From an uncultured Candidatus Saccharibacteria bacterium (GTDB taxonomy: Bacteria > Patescibacteriota > Minisyncoccia > Phycocordibacterales > UBA918), in the NCBI GenBank assembly GCA_964601615.1, contig CAZRNZ010000002.1, positions 207,431 through 271,430 on the forward strand: a stretch of 64,000 bases of DNA. Reading direction: 5' to 3'. This document shows, piece after piece, positions 3,835 through 60,515 of the stretch. The notes beneath the pieces were generated by a model. The model made no database searches. It was not told the origin of the DNA and saw nothing but the letters and a program-made list of their open reading frames with translations. Position 1 is the stretch's first letter, and every line of letters starts with the position of its first letter. A program made the position numbers and the translations under genes.

Positions 3835-4022
3835 ACTCCCAAAATCAGGTAAAACCTAGGACTTCAGGACTTTTGTTCAGTCGTCGTATATCTGTATACG
3901 ACTTCCTCATAAAAATCCTTCCAGTCCGTCGTTTTTCCTCTGATTTGTGTGATTTTATAAAAATAACTTGTCTGATTTTCCCGTGCAGAATAGCAAATAA
4001 ACCTGTAAAATAGGTTTAATTT

Positions 4023-8940: not shown

Positions 8941-8970
8941 AAGAGCCGCACCTTTGGTGCGGCTCTTTTA
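8941..8970 (+). terminator. Rho-independent terminator
   Basis: 10-bp GAGCCGCACC stem followed by a T-run. Confidence 0.7.
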
Positions 8971-9025
8971 TATTGAATCCTAAAGAGTTAAATGTTATCT
9001 TGTTACCTGCCTGTATAGGTAATTT

Positions 9026-9100
9026 GTTGATGTAAGTAAAAACTTGCATCGACTACATTCGGACTTGGCATGTAAGCAAGCTTTCTCGCAGTCCTCATTT
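9026..9100 (+). promoter_or_regulatory. Conserved tRNA-upstream module (copy A)
   Basis: Hairpin GTTGATG-N14-CATCGAC whose stem equals the acceptor stem of the downstream tRNA, followed by CATTCGGAC and ATGTAAGCAAGC. The same architecture occurs at 12831-12915. Confidence 0.4.
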
Positions 9101-9177
9101 GTCGATGTAGCTCAGTTGGTTAGAGCGCGGCACTCATAAAGCCGAGGTCGGAGGATCATTCCCTCCCATCGACACCA
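9101..9177 (+). tRNA. tRNA with anticodon CAT (Met or Ile2-lysidine type), CCA encoded
   Basis: Acceptor GTCGATG/CATCGAC, anticodon loop CTCATAA, unusual T-loop ATCATTC, genomic CCA. Confidence 0.75.
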
Positions 9178-9216
9178 GTGCATTTTTTGTAGTTTTCTGC
9201 TAGAATCTTGCCTGAT

Positions 9217-9290
9217 GCAGTCGTAGCTCAACTGGTTAGAGCACCCGCCTGTCACGCGGGAGGTTGCGGGTTCGAGTCCCGTCGACTGCG
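9217..9290 (+). tRNA. tRNA-Asp (GTC)
   Basis: Acceptor GCAGTCG/CGACTGC, anticodon loop CTGTCAC, T-loop TTCGAGT. Confidence 0.85.
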
Positions 9291-9299
9291 CATTTAATA

Positions 9300-9328
9300 A
9301 AAAGGCCGCCCTACGGGCGGCCTTTTTA
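9300..9328. terminator. Bidirectional terminator
   Basis: GGCCGCCC-TAC-GGGCGGCC stem with T-runs on both strands. Confidence 0.65.
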
Positions 9329-9523
9329 TTAAATCCTTTCCTTAATAAGATTTTTAATCTCGGTTAAGTTAGCTTCTTTTTCACTCATTAATTTTTCCCA
9401 AAATACTTTTGTATTCTCATCACTACTAGCATCGTTTTGGTAATCTTTTTTAATTCGCCACAAAGAACGTGATTCTACTGTGTATTGGAGCATTAAGTTA
9501 TATAAATTATTGTCCATTTCCAT
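9329..9523 (-). CDS. Hypothetical small charged protein
   Basis: 64-aa ORF converging on the bidirectional terminator; no recognisable domain. Confidence 0.35.
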   Translation of the reverse strand: MEMDNNLYNLMLQYTVESRSLWRIKKDYQNDASSDENTKVFWEKLMSEKEANLTEIKNLIKERI

Positions 9524-9626
9524 AGTTAATTAATTAAATTTTTAAAATTATCCATTTAATAATAGCCCACAATTAATTTAAAAAGTTGATTCAAAGTGCA
9601 CAAAATTGTGTTATTATTTCCGGTAT

Positions 9627-10400
9627 ATGAATAGAAATAAGTTTTTACCAATTGTTCTGATTGTTGGAATAATTGTCTTAGCAGTAATTATTTTTTGGCA
9701 AGTTCTTGGTGGTAAAAGTTTCCTATCAGAACCTTGGAAGGGTGTAGCTGGTGAGCCTATCGATGTAGCTCTCAATTTTTATGATGATTGGCTAGCTGCT
9801 CGTTCCGGTGAAAGTGATCCTTTTACAACTGGTTTACTTAATTATGAACAGGTTGGTAAAGATCTTCGTGAACATCTAGCCACTTTTGAAGGACGTCTAG
9901 GTGAAGAAGGAGTAGAAGATCCTGTACTTTGTCAGATGGATGTTCCTCCAGGATTACGCACAATTCCTGTGTATACTCAAGATGAAGCCGCTCAGTTTAT
10001 TATTCGTTCAGCTGATCGGTCTTTGACCGGACAGGCTGTAGTAACTTTGGCTGCCCAGGATGGTTTGTGGCAGATTACCAATATTAGTTGTGGTGGTGCT
10101 GAATCTGCTCCACAAGGAGAATATTCTTTTGATAAGTCTGGTTTTCTTCTTAAACAAGTTCCAGAACCTTTAAATTCAGATTATTGGCACTTGGTATTCC
10201 AGGAAGCTGGAGTTCTTGGACATGCGGTTCCTCTATTTATCACTGATGACAGCGTTTGTGTACAGAAGAATGGTGATACAGCTGCTTGTAACGATGATGT
10301 ACTAAAGGAAACAATTCCTGCTCGTGTTATGGGAAGTATGTCAGAGTCTGGTGTTCAGGTAAAAAGAATAGAATTGGTGGATTCGGTTTCTATAGATTAA
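9627..10400 (+). CDS. Hypothetical membrane-anchored extracytoplasmic protein
   Basis: N-terminal TM (LPIVLIVGIIVLAVIIF). Second in-frame Met preferred over the 9606 start. Confidence 0.5.
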   Translation: MNRNKFLPIVLIVGIIVLAVIIFWQVLGGKSFLSEPWKGVAGEPIDVALNFYDDWLAARSGESDPFTTGLLNYEQVGKDLREHLATFEGRLGEEGVEDPVLCQMDVPPGLRTIPVYTQDEAAQFIIRSADRSLTGQAVVTLAAQDGLWQITNISCGGAESAPQGEYSFDKSGFLLKQVPEPLNSDYWHLVFQEAGVLGHAVPLFITDDSVCVQKNGDTAACNDDVLKETIPARVMGSMSESGVQVKRIELVDSVSID

Positions 10401-10413
10401 ATACTTTATTTTC

Positions 10414-10466
10414 TTGTGAATAATAAAAAAACATCTCGCTTTGAGATGTTTTTTTATTATTCACAA
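10414..10466. terminator. Long perfect palindrome / terminator
   Basis: 24-bp arms TTGTGAATAATAAAAAAACATCTC ... GAGATGTTTTTTTATTATTCACAA. Confidence 0.6.
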
Positions 10467-10510
10467 TAAGCAATAAAGAATAAGCATTCATACTATATAA
10501 TTCACATAAT

Positions 10511-11689
10511 ATGAAAATAAGCCTAAGTCTGATAACAAAAGTTATTTACATTACCTTAGCTATTGTGGCTGTTATCGCAATTGCTTTTATTTCTTTCAAT
10601 GCATATACAAAATACAAAGCAGGAGAGGGTATTATTTGGAGTACTCTAGATAGTGATCCTGAATTAAAAGCAAATCAGCAATATGTTAGTGGTGATAAAG
10701 ATGCTGAATTATCTGGCAAGTTATTCCTTTCGTTGGCACCAAATAACGACGATTCAATAATAATATCGCCTTTCATGTTTGACTTCGAAAGAGAAAGGAT
10801 TGTATACACTGAATTAGATAAATATGGTGAAGGTGAAAGTGACTATGGAATCACTAGAGACATAATGTTCTCACCAGATGGGAAGTGGGCAGCTTTCAAT
10901 GGTGTATCTGCTGCTGACGTTCAGTTAGGAGGCTGGGATTCAAGTTCACCAACAGCTTACCAGATGTACCTATCTCCAGTTAAAAATGCTACTGCTAGCG
11001 ACAAAGATAAATTCCAAGAAATCAAAGATAACGCTAAAAGAGTATCTTTCGTTTCAGGTAAAGCAAAAACATTAACTGGTGTTAACAACAACGGAGAAAT
11101 ACTAATGCATTCTCTTGATAACTATCCTGGCGATCAAAACCACATTAGGCCAGCAGAGGAATATACCATTAGATTAATCTCTTCTATGGGTGAAACAGTA
11201 ATTGGCAATGGTACTTATCCAAAATGGATTACCAATGACCTGATTGTTTATTTTAAAAATGATGGTGTTTACTGCAAGATTCTTAGTACTGGTTTAGAGC
11301 AAATGCTTATCCCATATGATAGCAATGTCTCAATTCAGATTAACTCCAAGATGGGTGTATCCAAAGACGGCAAACTCTTAGCTGTATCAATCCCGGACGC
11401 TAAGAGATTACATATATTTGATATTGATGTAACTAGCAATGTCAGCATCATCAGCCCTAAGGTAGACTTTGACGCTACTGGTTTCTGGCCAGTATTTTCA
11501 CCAGATAATAAATTCATTGCCCTGCAAGAAGTTGATTTGAATGCTTTTACCCCGATGAAGATAGCTATTGCTGATCCAAAACCATCCTTAAGTATCTGGC
11601 GATTAGATGATTTGAGCAAGGTTGAGTACAGTATCGATTTACGAGACTTTTACCAGACTCATATCTTTGTTAGTGATTGGGTAAAATAA
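10511..11689 (+). CDS. Hypothetical protein with PD40/TolB-like beta-propeller repeats
   Basis: N-terminal TM. Repeated FSPDGK / FSPDNK motifs. Confidence 0.5.
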   Translation: MKISLSLITKVIYITLAIVAVIAIAFISFNAYTKYKAGEGIIWSTLDSDPELKANQQYVSGDKDAELSGKLFLSLAPNNDDSIIISPFMFDFERERIVYTELDKYGEGESDYGITRDIMFSPDGKWAAFNGVSAADVQLGGWDSSSPTAYQMYLSPVKNATASDKDKFQEIKDNAKRVSFVSGKAKTLTGVNNNGEILMHSLDNYPGDQNHIRPAEEYTIRLISSMGETVIGNGTYPKWITNDLIVYFKNDGVYCKILSTGLEQMLIPYDSNVSIQINSKMGVSKDGKLLAVSIPDAKRLHIFDIDVTSNVSIISPKVDFDATGFWPVFSPDNKFIALQEVDLNAFTPMKIAIADPKPSLSIWRLDDLSKVEYSIDLRDFYQTHIFVSDWVK

Positions 11690-11698
11690 ATTATATAT

Positions 11699-12718
11699 AT
11701 GATAAATTATTTAAGAACCTTATCTGTCGATTCCATCAAGCCCTACATATTAATGGCCTTAGTATTGCTTGGTTTTGTATTTATTGTGTTAATGCCTAAT
11801 GTTTCTTGTGCACAAAGAAGTCTTTTGGATGATGATCCGCCAGCGTGTGGGAATGTTGGTGGTGGTGGGGGTGGTACATCTGTGATTAGTAATGACGATG
11901 ATAGTAATTGGACTTGCTGGGACTACGGCAATTGTCCTTGTGAATACTACGGCAATTGTCCTGCTCCAATTACTCCGCCACCACAACCTCCGCCAGTTGT
12001 TATTGTTACCGACCCCTGCTGGGCATTCGGCACTTGTCCTCCACCACCAAATGTTTGTATAGGTAACTGTGGTGGTACACGCCCTCCACCACCTCTACCA
12101 GGTGGAGGTGGTGGGGGACCAACCCAACCACCCGTCTACTATGACCCAATAGGTGACTGTCATAGTAGTGGTGGTTCATGGAGTGGAGGTAGTTGTTATT
12201 ACCCACCTCCACCTCCTTCAGTTAGCATCAGTGCTAACCCAAACAGAATCATTTATGGAGGCAACTCAGTTATTAGTTGGTCTGTATCTAGAGCAAATAG
12301 CTGTCTAGGAACAGGTGACTGGAGCGGTAGTAAGTCAGCTTCTGGCGGCTCTGAGTTAAGAACAGACATTAGATCAACCCTAGGATACTCACCATACAGA
12401 ATATCTTGTAGCGGAGAAGGTGGTAGTGCTAGTGCAAGTACTAATGTGGTAATTGAATACGGAGTAGGAGCAACACTGACTGTTGACAGAGAAGTTGTCC
12501 GACCTGGTGATACAGTTACATTAACCTACGACATTGGTACTAGCTTAGCTCACACTTGTACACTAAAGAAAGGTAGTATAGTTATTCTAGACAACCTACA
12601 ACAAACTGGTACATACAGAGACTTATTACAAAGAGGTGAAATCGATTACCTCTTAGACTGTCCAGGTAACCCTGCTTCAGCTAAGGTAAAGGTCTTACCA
12701 GAATTCCAAGAGACTTAA
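11699..12718 (+). CDS. Pro/Gly/Cys-rich secreted surface protein with Ig-like C-terminal domains
   Basis: Signal/TM segment, Gly6 runs, PPPP runs, repeated YGNCP motifs, then SISANP...ISW beta-rich repeats. Confidence 0.5.
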   Translation: MINYLRTLSVDSIKPYILMALVLLGFVFIVLMPNVSCAQRSLLDDDPPACGNVGGGGGGTSVISNDDDSNWTCWDYGNCPCEYYGNCPAPITPPPQPPPVVIVTDPCWAFGTCPPPPNVCIGNCGGTRPPPPLPGGGGGGPTQPPVYYDPIGDCHSSGGSWSGGSCYYPPPPPSVSISANPNRIIYGGNSVISWSVSRANSCLGTGDWSGSKSASGGSELRTDIRSTLGYSPYRISCSGEGGSASASTNVVIEYGVGATLTVDREVVRPGDTVTLTYDIGTSLAHTCTLKKGSIVILDNLQQTGTYRDLLQRGEIDYLLDCPGNPASAKVKVLPEFQET

Positions 12719-12736
12719 TTATTTAACTCGGTGATT

Positions 12737-12767
12737 AAAAACACAGACAGAATGTCTGTGTTTTTTA
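12737..12767 (+). terminator. Rho-independent terminator
   Basis: AAAAACACAGACA/TGTCTGTGTTTTT hairpin. Confidence 0.7.
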
Positions 12768-12830
12768 ATATTAATTAGTTTTAAAAACAGTTTTATTTAT
12801 GCTATCATTGCCGGCGTCTGAGTAACTAAT

Positions 12831-12915
12831 TTGTCGCTCAATCGCCAATGTAAGTAAATTTTCATTGGCATCATTCGGACAGGATGTAAGCTAGTCTTCC
12901 ACCTTGTCCTCAATC
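12831..12915 (+). promoter_or_regulatory. Conserved tRNA-upstream module (copy B)
   Basis: GCCAATG-N13-CATTGGC hairpin that mimics the tRNA-Thr acceptor stem, then CATTCGGAC and ATGTAAGCTAG. TCAATCGCCAATGTA is directly repeated at 12838 and 12909. Confidence 0.4.
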
Positions 12916-12988
12916 GCCAATGTAGCTCAGTCGGTAGAGCGCATCCATGGTAAGGATGAGGTCTCCGGTTCAATCCCGGACATTGGCT
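12916..12988 (+). tRNA. tRNA-Thr (GGT)
   Basis: Acceptor GCCAATG/CATTGGC, anticodon loop ATGGTAA, T-loop TTCAATC. Confidence 0.85.
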
Positions 12989-12994
12989 CAAAGA

Positions 12995-13032
12995 CACGAA
13001 AACCTGACCCTACGTCAGGTTTTCGTGCTTTG
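12995..13032 (+). terminator. Rho-independent terminator
   Basis: 14-bp stem CACGAAAACCTGAC/GTCAGGTTTTCGTG. Confidence 0.7.
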
Positions 13033-13100
13033 GGCCCGGACATACGTTGTGAGCTTGCGAACCATATGTCAGGGCGAATATTTGTTATTATGATATTTAA

Positions 13101-16056: not shown

Positions 16057-16238
16057 TAAATAGGGAACCTTGCCTAGACAATAATACTCTTTATTTATTT
16101 TCTTTCAAGAATTGTCCTTTTTAGAAAGGCTGAAAAAAAACTATTTCTATGATAAAGTACTTCGACCCAAGAGGGTAAGTTGCTAGATAAGCCAATTCCG
16201 TAGATTGTTTATTTGGCACAAAATAAGAAATAAATATT

Positions 16239-16308
16239 GCCGGATCGTCTAAAGGTAGGACACATGGTTTTGGTCCATGGTATCGGGGTTCGAGTCCCTG
16301 TCCGGCAG
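16239..16308 (+). tRNA. tRNA-Gln (TTG)
   Basis: Acceptor GCCGGAT/GTCCGGC, anticodon loop TTTTGGT, T-loop TTCGAGT. Short D-arm. Confidence 0.7.
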
Positions 16309-16313
16309 CAGAG

Positions 16314-59891: not shown

Positions 59892-59972
59892 GCGTGAGTG
59901 GCGTAATGGTAGCCGCGTTGGTCTTAGGAACCAATGGAGCAATCCGTGGAGGTTCGAGTCCTCTCTCACGCA
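59892..59972 (+). tRNA. tRNA-Leu (TAG), type II
   Basis: Acceptor GCGTGAG/CTCACGC, anticodon loop CTTAGGA, 13-nt variable arm, T-loop TTCGAGT. Confidence 0.85.
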
Positions 59973-60116
59973 CAATGAAATAGAAAATGGTAAGCGAATA
60001 CTTGTAGCTTGCCATTTTTTATATTTCATCAGTGAGAAGGACGAGAAAAGCGGTTTGAGATATTTATGAGGCAAAGCCAAAATAAATATCCAAACGCTGC
60101 ACAGATTCTGTAAGAA

Positions 60117-60137
60117 TCGAGTCCTCTCTCACGCACA
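60117..60137 (+). repeat. 21-bp perfect direct repeat of the tRNA-Leu(TAG) 3' end (att-like)
   Basis: TCGAGTCCTCTCTCACGCACA occurs at 59954-59974 (inside the tRNA) and again at 60117-60137. Confidence 0.7.
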
Positions 60138-60175: not shown

Positions 60176-60194
60176 AATTATTTATCTTAGATTG

Positions 60195-60266
60195 AGGCCA
60201 GAACGGGAATCGAACCCGTGCGTGGAGGTTTTGCAGACCTCAGCGTTACCACTTCGCCACCTGGCC
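60195..60266 (-). tRNA. tRNA-Cys (GCA)
   Basis: Acceptor GGCCAGG/TCTGGCC, anticodon loop CTGCAAA, T-loop TTCGATT. Confidence 0.85.
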
Positions 60267-60328: not shown

Positions 60329-60347
60329 CTACTTCGCCACCTGACCA
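60329..60347 (-). repeat. Partial duplicate of the tRNA-Cys 5' end (tRNA fragment)
   Basis: CTACTTCGCCACCTGACCA matches CCACTTCGCCACCTGGCCA at 60249-60267 in the tRNA (17/19 identical), about 80 nt upstream of the tRNA 5' end. Confidence 0.5.
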
Positions 60348-60425: not shown

Positions 60426-60515
60426 GCCGGGGTGGTGGAGTTGGTAGACACGAGGGACTTAAAATCCCTTGCTATATATAATGGCGCGCGGGTTCAAATC
60501 CCGCTCCCGGCACCA
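60426..60515 (+). tRNA. tRNA-Leu (TAA), type II, CCA encoded
   Basis: Acceptor GCCGGGG/TCCCGGC, anticodon loop CTTAAAA, 18-nt variable arm, T-loop TTCAAAT, genomic CCA. Confidence 0.85.

Follow-up and report, generated by a model that had tools for sequence, protein, structure and literature searches.

The window, that is, the whole 64,000-nt stretch of DNA analysed here, contains 13 tRNA genes, two of which are directly preceded on their 5' side by a two-hairpin unit of about 75 nt, referred to below as the cassette or module. Copy A (9026-9100) lies before tRNA-CAT at 9101, between an unannotated 218-aa ORF and tRNA-Met, and copy B (12844-12915) before tRNA-Thr at 12916, between a 339-aa ORF and RF2; the ORFs near the copies comprise an amidase, the unannotated 218-aa ORF, RF2 and FtsE/X. 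The elements follow one another identically in both copies: first a hairpin of 12 layers (H1), its lower 7 bp being equal to the acceptor stem of the downstream tRNA, then NN-CAUUCGG, a second hairpin (H2), UCAUUU or UCAAUC, and the tRNA. The features are listed below, with the basis of each in brackets.

8993..9001, + strand: extended -10-like element TGTTATCTT of the tRNA-CAT unit, upstream of copy A (motif position)
9022..9034, + strand: upstream arm of direct repeat A, ATTTGTTGATGTA, the last 4 leader bases plus tRNA nt 1-9 (sequence)
9026..9053, + strand: hairpin 1 of copy A, GUUGAUG-UAAGU-AAAA-ACUUG-CAUCGAC, 12 stacked pairs (MFE fold, CM R1/R2 alignment, pair counts)
9056..9062, + strand: single-stranded block CAUUCGG of copy A, its two Gs opening hairpin 2 (kept across members)
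9061..9094, + strand: hairpin 2 of copy A, GGACU...AGUCC, with the apical motif U.AAG-CAAG-CUU.U (fold; the lower stem covaries freely between members)
9095..9100, + strand: 3' tail UCAUUU of copy A, abutting tRNA +1 (kept across members)
9101..9177, + strand: tRNA with anticodon CAT (Met or Ile2 type), CCA encoded (ARAGORN; Rfam tRNA 62 bits); its T-loop, AUCAUUC, is unusual
12800..12808, + strand: extended -10-like element TGCTATCAT of the tRNA-Thr unit, upstream of copy B (promoter scan, TTTAAA-17-TATCAT with TG)
12837..12852, + strand: upstream arm of direct repeat B, CTCAATCGCCAATGTA, 7 leader bases plus tRNA nt 1-9 (sequence)
12844..12869, + strand: hairpin 1 of copy B, GCCAAUG-UAAGUAAAUUUU-CAUUGGC, lower 7 bp equal to the tRNA-Thr acceptor stem (fold, CM alignment)
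12872..12878, + strand: block CAUUCGG of copy B (pattern count, alignments)
12877..12909, + strand: hairpin 2 of copy B, GGACAGG...CCUUGUCC, with the apical motif U.AAG-CUAGU-CUU.C (fold)
12910..12915, + strand: 3' tail UCAAUC of copy B, abutting tRNA +1 (sequence)
12916..12989, + strand: tRNA-Thr (GGT) (ARAGORN; Rfam 66.9 bits)

An earlier note on this DNA had described an acceptor-matching hairpin upstream of the tRNA at 9101, and both 7-nt strands are indeed present at 9026-9053, as GTTGATG (9026-9032) and CATCGAC (9047-9053) around TAAGTAAAAACTTG (9033-9046), the acceptor strands of the tRNA from 9101 being GTCGATG...CATCGAC; CATTCGGAC (9056-9064) and ATGTAAGCAAGC (9070-9081) follow on the 3' side. 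The 14 nt between these strands had been called a loop; the length is right, but the predicted fold pairs this segment internally, so that the stem extends to 12 bp and closes on an AAAA loop. For the second copy, placed at 12831-12915, the same order before tRNA-Thr had been correctly recognised, but its hairpin begins at 12844 and its loop has 12 nt, the count of 13 having taken one C twice: GCCAATG (12844-12850), TAAGTAAATTTT (12851-12862) and CATTGGC (12863-12869) are followed by CATTCGGAC (12872-12880) and ATGTAAGCTAG (12884-12894). The window has two instances of the combination CATTCGGAC-N(2-8)-ATGTAAGC, against none in 100 shuffles, the two copies are 80-83% identical across the module in MAFFT alignments, and the sequence of copy B recurs base for base in an independent Logan assembly (L015). 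The contrast of differing stems and conserved blocks is thin within the window, where the acceptor stems of the two tRNAs are just two base pairs apart (positions 2 and 4), but becomes convincing with the copies from other genomes described below.

The position of promoter-like elements bears on how the cassette is expressed. At six module-free tRNAs of the window, the TGNTANNNT motif stops 9-13 nt short of +1, and at the two module-bearing ones 99 nt (A) and 107 nt (B) short of it, the motif being there the single instance within 160 nt; in the related locus L011 the same TGTTATCTT lies 18 nt before an identical tRNA-CAT that has no module. A scan for sigma-70 promoter hexamers or an intrinsic terminator found none inside 9026-9100 or 12844-12915, in keeping with the earlier view that the unit is neither promoter nor terminator. 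Since the sole promoter-like extended -10 lies upstream of each cassette, the cassette is probably transcribed as the 5' leader of its tRNA. A reading as a small ORF or start-stop (ATG-TAA) arrangement was rejected, as it is not conserved in L026 or L099.

Folding of the two leaders gave z values of -3.6 and -4.2. Hairpin 1 of copy B consists of 7 bp, a mismatch and 3 bp, and its counterparts in L020, L026 and L099 have 12 layers with 1-3 mismatches. In a model-fitted alignment of 6 sequences, both bases have changed in 11 of 21 pairs and the paired share of cells is 91%, a level reached by 0 of 500 shuffles, with slid controls at 39-45%; compensatory changes of the kind expected of a structured RNA thus back the helices within this alignment, and they occur in both hairpins, as the description of the module as structured had implied. 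The lower stems of hairpin 2 are unrelated in sequence between members, yet paired throughout; in copy B relative to copy A, one lower-stem pair changes from C-G to G-C in the CM alignment, and a second from U-A to A-U as read from two separate folds. Where pairs deviate from Watson-Crick, they are for the most part G-U on the sense strand. Inspection by eye for pairing of CAUUCGG with T-loops or the upstream leader revealed no consistent complement. The possibility that the AAGY hairpin is a general genome repeat was discarded, with GTAAGY-N3-5-RCTT occurring at chance frequency in the window.

The resemblance to the acceptor stem is specific to each tRNA. Across 7 members, the 5' strand of hairpin 1 shows 47 of 49 identities with its own tRNA, a score equalled by 2 of 5040 permutations, which bears out the earlier claim of a match; position 6 is C, T or A in three Asp copies, in each case as in the tRNA. 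The 3' strand agrees with the tRNA 3' strand at 5 of 7 positions in L025 and 4 of 7 in the L099 Asp copy, with pairing retained, and hence follows the hairpin's own 5' strand, not the tRNA 3' strand, which is the expectation for an insulating complement. When this 3' strand was replaced in silico, the orphan upstream copy of the tRNA 5' strand captured the tRNA 3' strand, in 7/7 variants of B with a probability of ~1.0 and in 4/7 variants of A with a probability of at least 0.43. The equilibrium ensemble of intact copy B favours the correct acceptor at about 52:46 (0.52 vs 0.46). The pairing has defects in several members (5/7 pairs in L099, one mismatch each in L020 and L026). Hairpin 1 is preceded at -1 by U in 6 of 7 members; in B this base is C, the same as before the B tRNA. 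The predicted folds supply the roughly 12 stacked pairs from +1 and the single-stranded 5' leader that define an RNase P minihelix.

By using covariance models together with reading by eye, the cassette was found in 7 other Paceibacteria genomes, on the 5' side of tRNA-CAT genes and of tRNA genes for Thr, Asp and Gln, so the term "conserved module" proves apt; the earlier note would have been refuted by a module limited to these two loci and devoid of covariation, whereas other genomes carry it and both hairpins covary. Matches to models R1/R2 include L026 (E 4e-17), L099 (2e-13), L018 (2e-13) and L025 (4e-9); since these four went into building R2, the independent support is their R1 scores (E 2.5e-7, 3.1e-5, 2e-4 and 0.38, respectively). 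Every match abuts a tRNA or tRNA-like 5' end, and no hit better than E 3 arose in 1.1 Mb of 68 non-CPR control loci; the diverged L020 and L099-Asp copies were recognised by eye. The block CAUUCGG is unchanged in A, B, L026, L018 and L102 (CAUUCGC in L099, CGUUCGG in L025), and the tail reads UCAUUU in A, L026, L018 and L020, UCAAUC in B, UCAUUC in L099 and UCACUU in L025; CAUUCGG and UCAUUU are thus retained across genomes whose RF2 proteins are 58-79% identical to that of the window. The module of L026 precedes an intron-bearing tRNA-Asp.

Database searches for known families gave little. At the gathering threshold, Rfam 15 detected only tRNAs, plus one LOOT RNA elsewhere, in the window and 7 related loci, and neither module was matched when 8950-13050 was scanned permissively (E <= 5). 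The exact pattern TGTAAGT..ATTCGGAC..TGTAAGC, too strict for a family whose members vary in these blocks, had 0 matches in GTDB genomes, 0 in viral contigs and 8 in JGI metagenomes, all of them chance matches in coding regions. Viral-contig hits to hairpin-1/CAUUCGG patterns lay in a conserved phage protein-coding region or were due to chance; none had a tRNA in its vicinity or matched Rfam. Full-text literature searches found no description of such a pre-tRNA leader, and a paper on tRNA introns of Patescibacteria (PMC13011429) makes no mention of leaders, acceptor stems or duplications.

Sites free of the module are also found among relatives. L011 and L012 have sequence-identical tRNA-CAT and tRNA-Thr genes with leaders of ~18-20 nt and no module, and the Thr or CAT site is likewise without it in L019, L021, L101, L102 and L105. 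A scan anchored on RF2 yielded ~12 CPR loci among 80 returned; many contigs of close relatives break inside tRNA-Thr, and the upstream sequence is missing in several of these RF2-anchored comparisons. Pairwise identities (A-B 69%, A-L099 67%, Asp-Asp 70%) do not cluster by genome. The idea of a recent spread, based on such clustering, is unsupported (A-B 69% vs A-L099 67%), and old vertical inheritance with losses, as for a host-retained element, is as compatible with these values as mobility.

The junctions disclose how the cassette sits in the tRNA gene. Direct repeat A, which can be written ATTTGT(T/C)GATGTA, is 13 nt long with a single mismatch, T for C, its second arm being ATTTGTCGATGTA at 9097-9109; direct repeat B is a perfect 16 nt, with its second arm at 12909-12924. 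By locus, repeat length is 8-9 nt, 13-16 nt in the window copies and 20 nt for Gln, and the span between the arms is 55-62 nt only. At the left junction, (G/T)TA is followed by the cassette in 8 of 9 copies, with AG in seven, AT in L025 and TG in L020; in the diverged Asp copy of L099 the break falls between GT and T instead. The right junction is tRNA +1 in every copy. In the tRNA-Gln genes of L102 and L018, the cassette AGC-NNN-GCUU...CAUUCGG stands after a copy of nt 1-20, ending in the D-loop GGTA; these Gln-type copies have no acceptor-like hairpin and no complement of the orphan strand. A typical copy thus comprises the original promoter and a short leader, an orphan tRNA +1 to +9 ending in GUA, the cassette, and a full tRNA from +1. 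The cassette body opens with AG(Y)-loop-(R)CUU and continues with a 7-mer that complements the orphan strand, then NN-CAUUCGG, hairpin 2 and UCAUUU. Both hairpins are built alike, with a U-pyrimidine or U-G mismatch between the lower stem and an AAGY/RCUU apical stem, which is closed by a loop of 3-5 nt. Two marks of an att-type insertion are therefore present, namely a tRNA direct repeat flanking the insert with an intact tRNA at one end, and an empty site in related genomes; no integrase domain was detected in 8 proteins scanned around copies A and B. The same genomes contain other small inserts that duplicate tRNA parts, on the 3' side of tRNA-Leu-TAG and the 5' side of tRNA-Cys in the window and in L099, L101, L102 and L105.

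The preferred explanation, given a probability of roughly 45%, is that an insertion/duplication cassette entered the 5' part of these tRNA genes, restores the tRNA 5' end, pairs off the orphan strand and is removed by RNase P. A non-coding cassette of ~60-75 nt would have lodged in a tRNA gene of Paceibacteria, in which small tRNA-gene insertions are common. Transcription from the old promoter would run through it and yield a 5' leader of 90-110 nt, which is predicted, with backing from covariation, to fold into two hairpins of one design. In hairpin 1 the orphan 5' acceptor strand would pair with the 7-mer of the cassette, and because of this pairing the hairpin resembles an acceptor stem; thus engaged, the orphan strand would be no competitor of the genuine 5' strand in pairing with the tRNA 3' acceptor strand. 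RNase P would remove the entire leader at the true +1, and may also cut at hairpin 1, a 12-layer minihelix with U or C at -1. Spread could have occurred by site-specific recombination between GTA and AG, or by duplication plus gene conversion, and if the direct repeats recombined with each other, the cassette would be lost and a normal short leader left behind, like those of relatives. According to a passage of PMC6563490, mobile elements are known to recombine with tRNA genes in their 5'-distal part, albeit rarely. Several observations weigh against this reading: no recombinase, transposase, circular or empty-site intermediate was found in the 8 neighbouring proteins or the viral-contig scans, the varying repeat length (8-9, 13-16 and 20 nt) fits no simple transposase, and the conservation of CAUUCGG and UCAUUU across distant genomes is unexpected for a passive scar and points to a specific partner. 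The imperfect stems of hairpin 1 and the Gln copies without a complement indicate that insulation is not universal. Of the three origins put forward earlier, the footprint of a tRNA-targeting recombination or insertion fits this anatomy best, and a processing element or regulatory leader is less favoured. Hairpin 1 does copy the acceptor stem, as the notion of mimicry requires, but this copy belongs to a direct repeat of the tRNA 5' end, of which it forms one arm. The mimicry is probably a tolerated consequence of the origin of the cassette, not demonstrably its purpose, in view of this repeat, the 3' strand that follows its own hairpin, the Gln copies without mimicry and the identical tRNAs that are free of the module.

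Considering known systems, duplications of att sites at tRNA genes are documented (Zhao and Williams 2002, as cited in PMC6563490, where the passage in question describes the 5'-distal orientation as rare). The cassette shares with them a tRNA direct repeat around foreign DNA, a patchy occurrence among relatives, and a tRNA kept intact because the incoming DNA replaces the displaced part. It differs in that the insert has about 55-75 nt and no integrase or other gene, the same cassette occurs at several tRNA species with its repeats retargeted, it holds a complement of the displaced fragment, and its stems evolve by compensatory change, pointing to RNA or single-strand structure. Minihelix or model hairpin substrates of RNase P consist of the acceptor stem stacked on the T stem, 12 bp in all. 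Hairpin 1 is comparable in its ~12 stacked layers, the first 7 of which are the acceptor stem, its G+1 and its single-stranded leader ending in U/C, but has no free 3' end or RCCA by the helix, a loop of 3-5 nt instead of a T-loop, and a mismatch layer at position 8. REP/BIME, Correia elements and Rickettsia palindromic elements are small palindromic non-coding repeats co-transcribed with genes. Like them, the cassette is short, hairpin-forming, ORF-less, variable in presence and tolerated in transcription units; such elements, however, have many dispersed copies, no tie to tRNA 5' ends, no target duplication of 9-20 nt and no target-specific complement. Nor does the cassette match a MITE or transposase-mobilised element, which would have terminal inverted repeats and a target-site duplication of fixed length: here the duplication varies in length, and the inverted repeat of hairpin 1 lies at one end and includes the flank.

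RNA-based parallels are also partial. The thrS operator and tRNA-like structures, like T-box leaders, serve to control protein genes; what they mimic or bind is the anticodon arm or the NCCA end. The cassette resembles them as a 5' leader with a tRNA-specific helix that copies a tRNA helix, but it precedes the tRNA itself, and it duplicates the 5' strand literally. Group I introns are frequent in tRNA genes of Patescibacteria (PMC13011429). As in their P1 helix, the end of an "exon" copy on the upstream side forms a hairpin with a complementary guide that lies immediately within the insert, with U at the junction (U-G in copy A); in most members, however, the cassette junction is U-U or U-A, and the cassette has ~75 nt and no catalytic core, with a flank that does not continue the exon but begins the tRNA anew at +1. 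Identity as a group I intron was rejected on the lack of an RF00028 hit, the 75-nt size of the module and this restart.

Among the rival explanations, a dedicated host-selected pre-tRNA leader is possible, though on the unlikely side. Hairpin 1 would then be a deliberate acceptor/T-arm minihelix mimic (7 bp, a mismatch layer and 4 bp, 12 layers in total, with U/C at -1 and often N-N-C-A after the 3' strand) that recruits or titrates RNase P, or might instead engage another factor that binds acceptor stems; alternatively, it would act as a maturation switch by toggling with the genuine acceptor stem, and CAUUCGG and the two AAGY hairpins would be putative binding sites for a trans factor. Such a role accords with the sequence blocks and two covarying hairpins kept across distant genomes, with an inverted repeat of hairpin 1 that ends exactly at tRNA +1 and has no part in the leader, with the -1 base (U in 6/7 members, and C in B as before its tRNA), with non-Watson-Crick pairs that are chiefly G-U on the sense strand, with the predicted bistability of copy B (0.52 vs 0.46), and with a hairpin that tracks tRNA changes between orthologous loci. 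Against it, identical tRNAs of close relatives do without the module, which 2 of the 13 window tRNAs carry, the Gln-type copies have no mimic, several stems of hairpin 1 are degraded, and no corresponding Rfam family or published motif was found; moreover, the direct-repeat anatomy and the other tRNA-fragment duplications require a DNA-level process anyway. More speculative, and rather unlikely, is the proposal that the cassettes represent an unrecognised class of miniature elements of CPR tRNA genes, or a cis-acting switch of two interchangeable acceptor helices gating the RNase P maturation of selected tRNAs. The former version may be a selfish insert that brings its own replacement of the tRNA 5' end and an insulator strand, so that its cost is pre-paid at the RNA level, with targeting possibly achieved through base pairing with the acceptor strand.

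Another source, a quite improbable one, would be a phage, plasmid or island, the classical integrative elements, of which a remnant stayed behind after recombination in the 5'-distal part of the tRNA gene. The arms would be attL/attR cores, the palindrome of hairpin 1 a recombinase core site, and the 55-62 nt between the arms fused arm remnants, possibly a trans-mobilisable CIME-like mini-element. A tRNA direct repeat around foreign DNA with an intact tRNA is a hallmark of tRNA-targeting integration, hairpin 1 forms a 27-28-bp palindrome, and a second type of insert, in the window and relatives, duplicates the tRNA 3' part from the T-loop and carries its own terminator; the stretch from the T-loop to the tRNA 3' end is among the sublocations known for integrases. 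Precedents for the 5'-distal orientation are given in a passage of PMC6563490. The inserts are, however, uniformly tiny and have the same internal architecture across tRNAs and genomes, which is not expected from independent deletions of large elements. An integrase gene was found at no copy, the compensatory stem changes indicate single-stranded structure rather than double-stranded DNA binding sites, the outer 5 bp of the palindrome are tRNA-specific, and attP-like patterns in viral contigs were coding-sequence coincidences only. Neutral local duplication, by which each copy would be a decayed tandem tRNA (pseudo-tRNA) or a product of replication slippage, with neither selection nor a common origin, is very improbable. 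A degenerate partial tRNA copy does lie upstream of tRNA-Cys in the window, and ATGTAAGCTAGTC in copy B resembles tRNA nt 5-17, ATGTAGCTCAGTC; nevertheless, local alignment found no significant similarity of the module body to window tRNAs (p 0.06-0.9), the presence of CAUUCGG, AAGY hairpins and UCAUUU in modules at different tRNAs and in different genomes marks them as homologous, and compensatory changes denote constraint, so that family-wide conservation and covariation largely refute this reading.

Taken as a whole, the cassette looks like a small insertion that is transcribed and folded away, unlike any catalogued regulatory RNA. CPR/Patescibacteria have tiny genomes and tolerate many intervening sequences in their RNA genes. 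To that list would be added a conserved structured leader piece attached to tRNA genes, of which no description was found in the databases and literature searched; such cassettes and partial tRNA copies can also mislead tRNA annotation and break assemblies. If it is a true mobile insert, it would reveal a route into an essential gene, from its 5' side, that an element can take without killing the gene, with the promoter kept, the 5' end restored and the leftover strand hairpinned away. If it is a true host element, it would be the first pre-tRNA leader to copy the acceptor stem of its own tRNA, and would offer a direct handle on the control of tRNA maturation in unculturable organisms.

Thirteen tRNA genes were located in the window, with ARAGORN and Rfam concordant, and two of them are preceded by a two-hairpin structure that an earlier note on this DNA had described as a module mimicking the acceptor stem:

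Module A, before tRNA-CAT (9101-9177): hairpin 1 of GTTGATG (9026-9032), TAAGT-AAAA-ACTTG and CATCGAC (9047-9053); then TA, CATTCGG (9056-9062), hairpin 2 GGACT...AGTCC (9061-9094) and TCATTT (9095-9100)
Module B, before tRNA-Thr (12916-12989): hairpin 1 of GCCAATG (12844-12850), TAAGTAAATTTT and CATTGGC (12863-12869); then AT, CATTCGG, hairpin 2 GGACAGG...CCTTGTCC (12877-12909) and TCAATC
Direct repeat in A: ATTTGT(T/C)GATGTA at 9022-9034 and 9097-9109
Direct repeat in B, perfect over 16 nt: CTCAATCGCCAATGTA at 12837-12852 and 12909-12924

The module is real at both tRNAs: its combined pattern occurs twice in the window and in 0 of 100 shuffles, MAFFT alignments give 80-83% identity between regions A and B, fold predictions yield the same pair of hairpins for both leaders (z-scores -3.6 and -4.2), and copy B is reproduced exactly in an independent Logan assembly. 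The conserved order reported earlier stands, but the loop of B had been read with a one-base slip, and the acceptor stems of A and B differ at just two base pairs, so the window alone is no proof that the hairpin stem tracks the tRNA. What had been missed is that hairpin 1 has its 5' arm within a direct repeat extending into the leader. Upstream of module B, the leader at 12820-12843 reads TAATTTGTCG-CTCAATC; its first part resembles the module A junction TAATTT|GT(T/C)G and its second repeats the 3' tail of module B, and this stretch may have been left by a former module or by a tandem duplication subsequently trimmed.

By using covariance models built from A and B (R1) and from six members (R2), further copies were recovered in related genomes, each ending exactly where a tRNA or tRNA-like gene begins (L-numbers denote loci from other genomes):

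L026, 220-293: before tRNA-Asp interrupted at position 35/36
L099, 1491-1570: before tRNA-CAT
L025, 2488-2562: before tRNA-Asp
L018, 4102-4176: before a degenerate tRNA-Gln copy
L102/L104, 13310-13380: before tRNA-Gln
L020, before tRNA-Thr, and L099, before tRNA-Asp: diverged modules recognized by eye

For L026, L099, L025 and L018, the R2 E-values are circular because these sequences are in the R2 training alignment; the independent R1 values are 2.5e-7, 3.1e-5, 0.38 and 2e-4, respectively. The L026 tRNA-Asp (294-~600) escaped ARAGORN and Rfam because it is split by an insertion behind anticodon position 35 (..CCCCTGT|agaattgc..); this insertion matches the 35/36 site at which group I introns are described in Patescibacteria (PMC13011429) and falls below the threshold of the Rfam group I model. 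Across 68 loci from outside the candidate phyla radiation (1.1 Mb), the covariance search returned nothing better than E 3; Rfam held no family matching the module even at E <= 5, and no description of such a leader turned up in the literature searched. Nine viral (IMG/VR) contigs (L119-L121, L123, L126-L130) were rejected as carriers, since their CGTAAGCTTCGCTTTCATGCCTTTCATTCGGGCG is a coincidental pattern match: this conserved stretch is common to phage contigs of 37-64% GC and looks like part of a conserved protein-coding region on the opposite strand.

Both hairpins of each member share one design: above the lower stem come a layer of U-pyrimidine or U-G mismatch and then an apical AAGY/RCUU stem closed by a loop of 3-5 nt. 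After each hairpin, CAUU(C/U) follows at a distance of one or two bases. In hairpin 2, the lower stem is always paired and its sequence is unrelated between members (GGACU/AGUCC; GGACAGG/CCUUGUCC; AUAUGG/CCAUAU; GGGAAAAGAG/CUCUUUGUCCC; AGAAUAAC/GUUAUUCU). In a model-fitted alignment of six sequences, a small sample biased towards the model, pairing holds in 91% of cells and 11 of the 21 pairs have changed on both sides; none of 500 shuffles reached the observed pairing and covariation, and slid partners pair at 39-45%. Together with non-Watson-Crick pairs that are mostly G-U on the sense strand, these changes argue for selection on a single-stranded structure, most simply leader RNA, as far as so small and model-leaning an alignment can be read.

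The promoter lies upstream of the module, which had also been missed. The extended -10 motif TGNTANNNT ends 9-13 nt before +1 in six module-free tRNAs of the window and 99 and 107 nt before +1 in the two module-bearing ones, with no promoter-like element in between; transcription therefore most likely runs through the module, making it a long 5' leader. The neighbouring genes encode GatA, RF2 and FtsE/X, and the best named relatives of RF2 are from Kaiserbacteria and Paceibacterota, the closest just 79% identical. In a syntenic relative (L011/L012), tRNA-CAT and tRNA-Thr are identical in sequence to those of the window and have leaders of ~18-20 nt without the module, tRNA-CAT retaining the same promoter element, TGTTATCTT; the module is thus dispensable and looks like an insertion relative to that genome.

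Seven members, representing six acceptor sequences, were compared with their tRNAs: the hairpin 1 5' strand agrees with nt 1-7 of the tRNA that follows it at 47 of 49 positions, and just two of 5040 permutations reach this score, namely the true assignment and the one that exchanges the Thr copies. At position 6, the three Asp modules have C, T or A, in agreement with their respective tRNAs, and the two CAT modules have T versus C. The 3' strand follows its hairpin partner instead: where the two disagree, it complements its own 5' strand and does not copy the tRNA 3' strand (identity 5/7 in L025 and 4/7 in L099-Asp, with pairing retained), with one or two mismatches in L020, L026 and L099. The inverted repeat of hairpin 1 ends exactly at +1, and the junctions in nearly all copies are (G/T)TA then AG(Y) on the left and tRNA +1 on the right. 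Gln-type copies, in which the upstream repeat comprises tRNA nt 1-20 up to the D-loop GGTA, have no acceptor-like hairpin. In thermodynamic models lacking the 3' strand of hairpin 1, the orphan strand, that is, the duplicated tRNA 5' end, captures the tRNA 3' acceptor strand (B: 7/7 variants, probability ~1.0; A: at least 0.43 in 4/7 variants). An orphan 5' acceptor strand in the leader would accordingly be a hazard in these models, and we read the mimicry as a probable by-product of pairing it off with a built-in complement.

Other small inserts duplicating tRNA parts are present in the same genomes. In the window, the following inserts and long leaders were observed:

59974-60137 (+), after tRNA-Leu(TAG) (59892-59973): ~143-nt insert, then a second copy of the last 20 nt (TCGAGTCCTCTCTCACGCAC, 60118-60137); a terminator-like hairpin (AAAUGGUAAGC...GCUUGCCAUUUUUU) opens the insert, which includes the tRNA 3' part as an imperfect inverted copy and has ...ATATCCAAACGCTGCACAGATTCTGTAAGAA at its end
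60194-60266 (-), tRNA-Cys: degenerate direct copy of its nt 1-18 at ~60329-60346, 80 nt upstream (GGTCAGGTGGCGAAGTAG vs GGCCAGGTGGCGAAGTGG), then a ~63-nt stretch with a hairpin and T-arm-like GAGTTCGAGCC; extended -10 motif 101 nt upstream, i.e. another long leader
16159-16237 (+): 79-nt leader of tRNA-Gln (16238-16309), containing GGTA|AGTTGC

Inserts of the tRNA-Leu(TAG) type constitute a second family of small tRNA-gene inserts. A very similar right end, ..ATCCAAAAGGTGTACNGAAACTGTAAGTTT, occurs in T-loop inserts of tRNA-CAT (L099 1646-1805, L102) and tRNA-Asp (L102); analogous T-loop inserts with duplicated 3' ends and different right ends follow the initiator tRNA (L101, L105) and tRNA-Asp (L105). 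The tRNA-Cys stretch gave no match to the module covariance model and looks like a decayed partial tRNA copy. In relatives, copies of the tRNA-Gln 5' part, 20-50 nt long, lie before the gene (L011 9068-9195; L018 ~3890-3976; L026 ~10620-10747; L102 13291-13384), with the AGC-NNN-GCUU...C(A/G)UUCG cassette after the D-loop GGTA in L102 and L018; in L102, nt 22-72 of tRNA-Gln are moreover duplicated 47 nt downstream of the gene. The T-loop of tRNA-CAT (9155-9161) is AUCAUUC rather than the usual UUCRANY, as in L011, L099 and L102; this heptamer recurs after hairpin 1 of module B (12870-12876), perhaps by coincidence. A 3' CCA is encoded by 2 of the 13 window tRNA genes (tRNA-CAT at 9101, tRNA-Leu-TAA at 60426) and is absent from the otherwise identical tRNA-CAT of L011. 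That relative also has a LOOT RNA (RF03000, 64 bits) at 1054-1166, downstream of its initiator tRNA, with no counterpart detected in the window.

The order of elements, namely old promoter, orphan 5' fragment, ~60-nt cassette with the complement of the fragment, new short leader UCAUUU and complete tRNA, has the appearance of a tRNA gene that received an insertion in its 5' part and was restored by the incoming DNA. There is precedent, albeit uncommon, for mobile elements that recombine with the 5'-distal portion of tRNA genes (PMC6563490). The footprint of tRNA-targeting recombination suggested earlier is supported by this anatomy, but no recombinase gene lies near the copies, with no integrase domain among the eight neighbouring proteins scanned; this absence, the uniformly small size and the compensatory evolution make remnants of classical integrated elements improbable. 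Neutral local duplication is highly improbable, being contradicted by family-wide homology and covariation. The conservation of CAUUCGG and UCAUUU as sequence across distant genomes suggests a specific partner, which might be a DNA recombinase or nuclease, or a protein or RNA acting on the leader. Module identities show no grouping by genome, so prolonged vertical retention followed by losses is as possible as mobility. These conserved blocks, the lack of clustering and an insulation that is imperfect or absent in some members keep a leader selected by the host for processing or regulation (by recruiting RNase P, titrating a factor or acting as a two-state switch) a serious alternative, albeit one we consider rather unlikely; copy B, predicted at 52:46 between acceptor states, fits a switch.

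For the insertion reading, all RNA-level steps are inferred: transcription would run from the old promoter through the cassette; hairpin 1 would pair the orphan 5' strand with the cassette's complement; and cleavage by RNase P at the true +1 would take off the entire leader. RNase P may also cut hairpin 1, which forms a minihelix of 12 layers preceded by U or C at -1. Among known systems, the cassette is closest to tRNA-gene att duplications and small palindromic inserts, from which it differs in size, in retargeting to several tRNAs and in its RNA-level constraint. This cassette of Paceibacteria pre-tRNA leaders is genuine, conserved, structured and undescribed; its resemblance to the acceptor stem comes from a duplicated tRNA 5' end that is paired with a complement.
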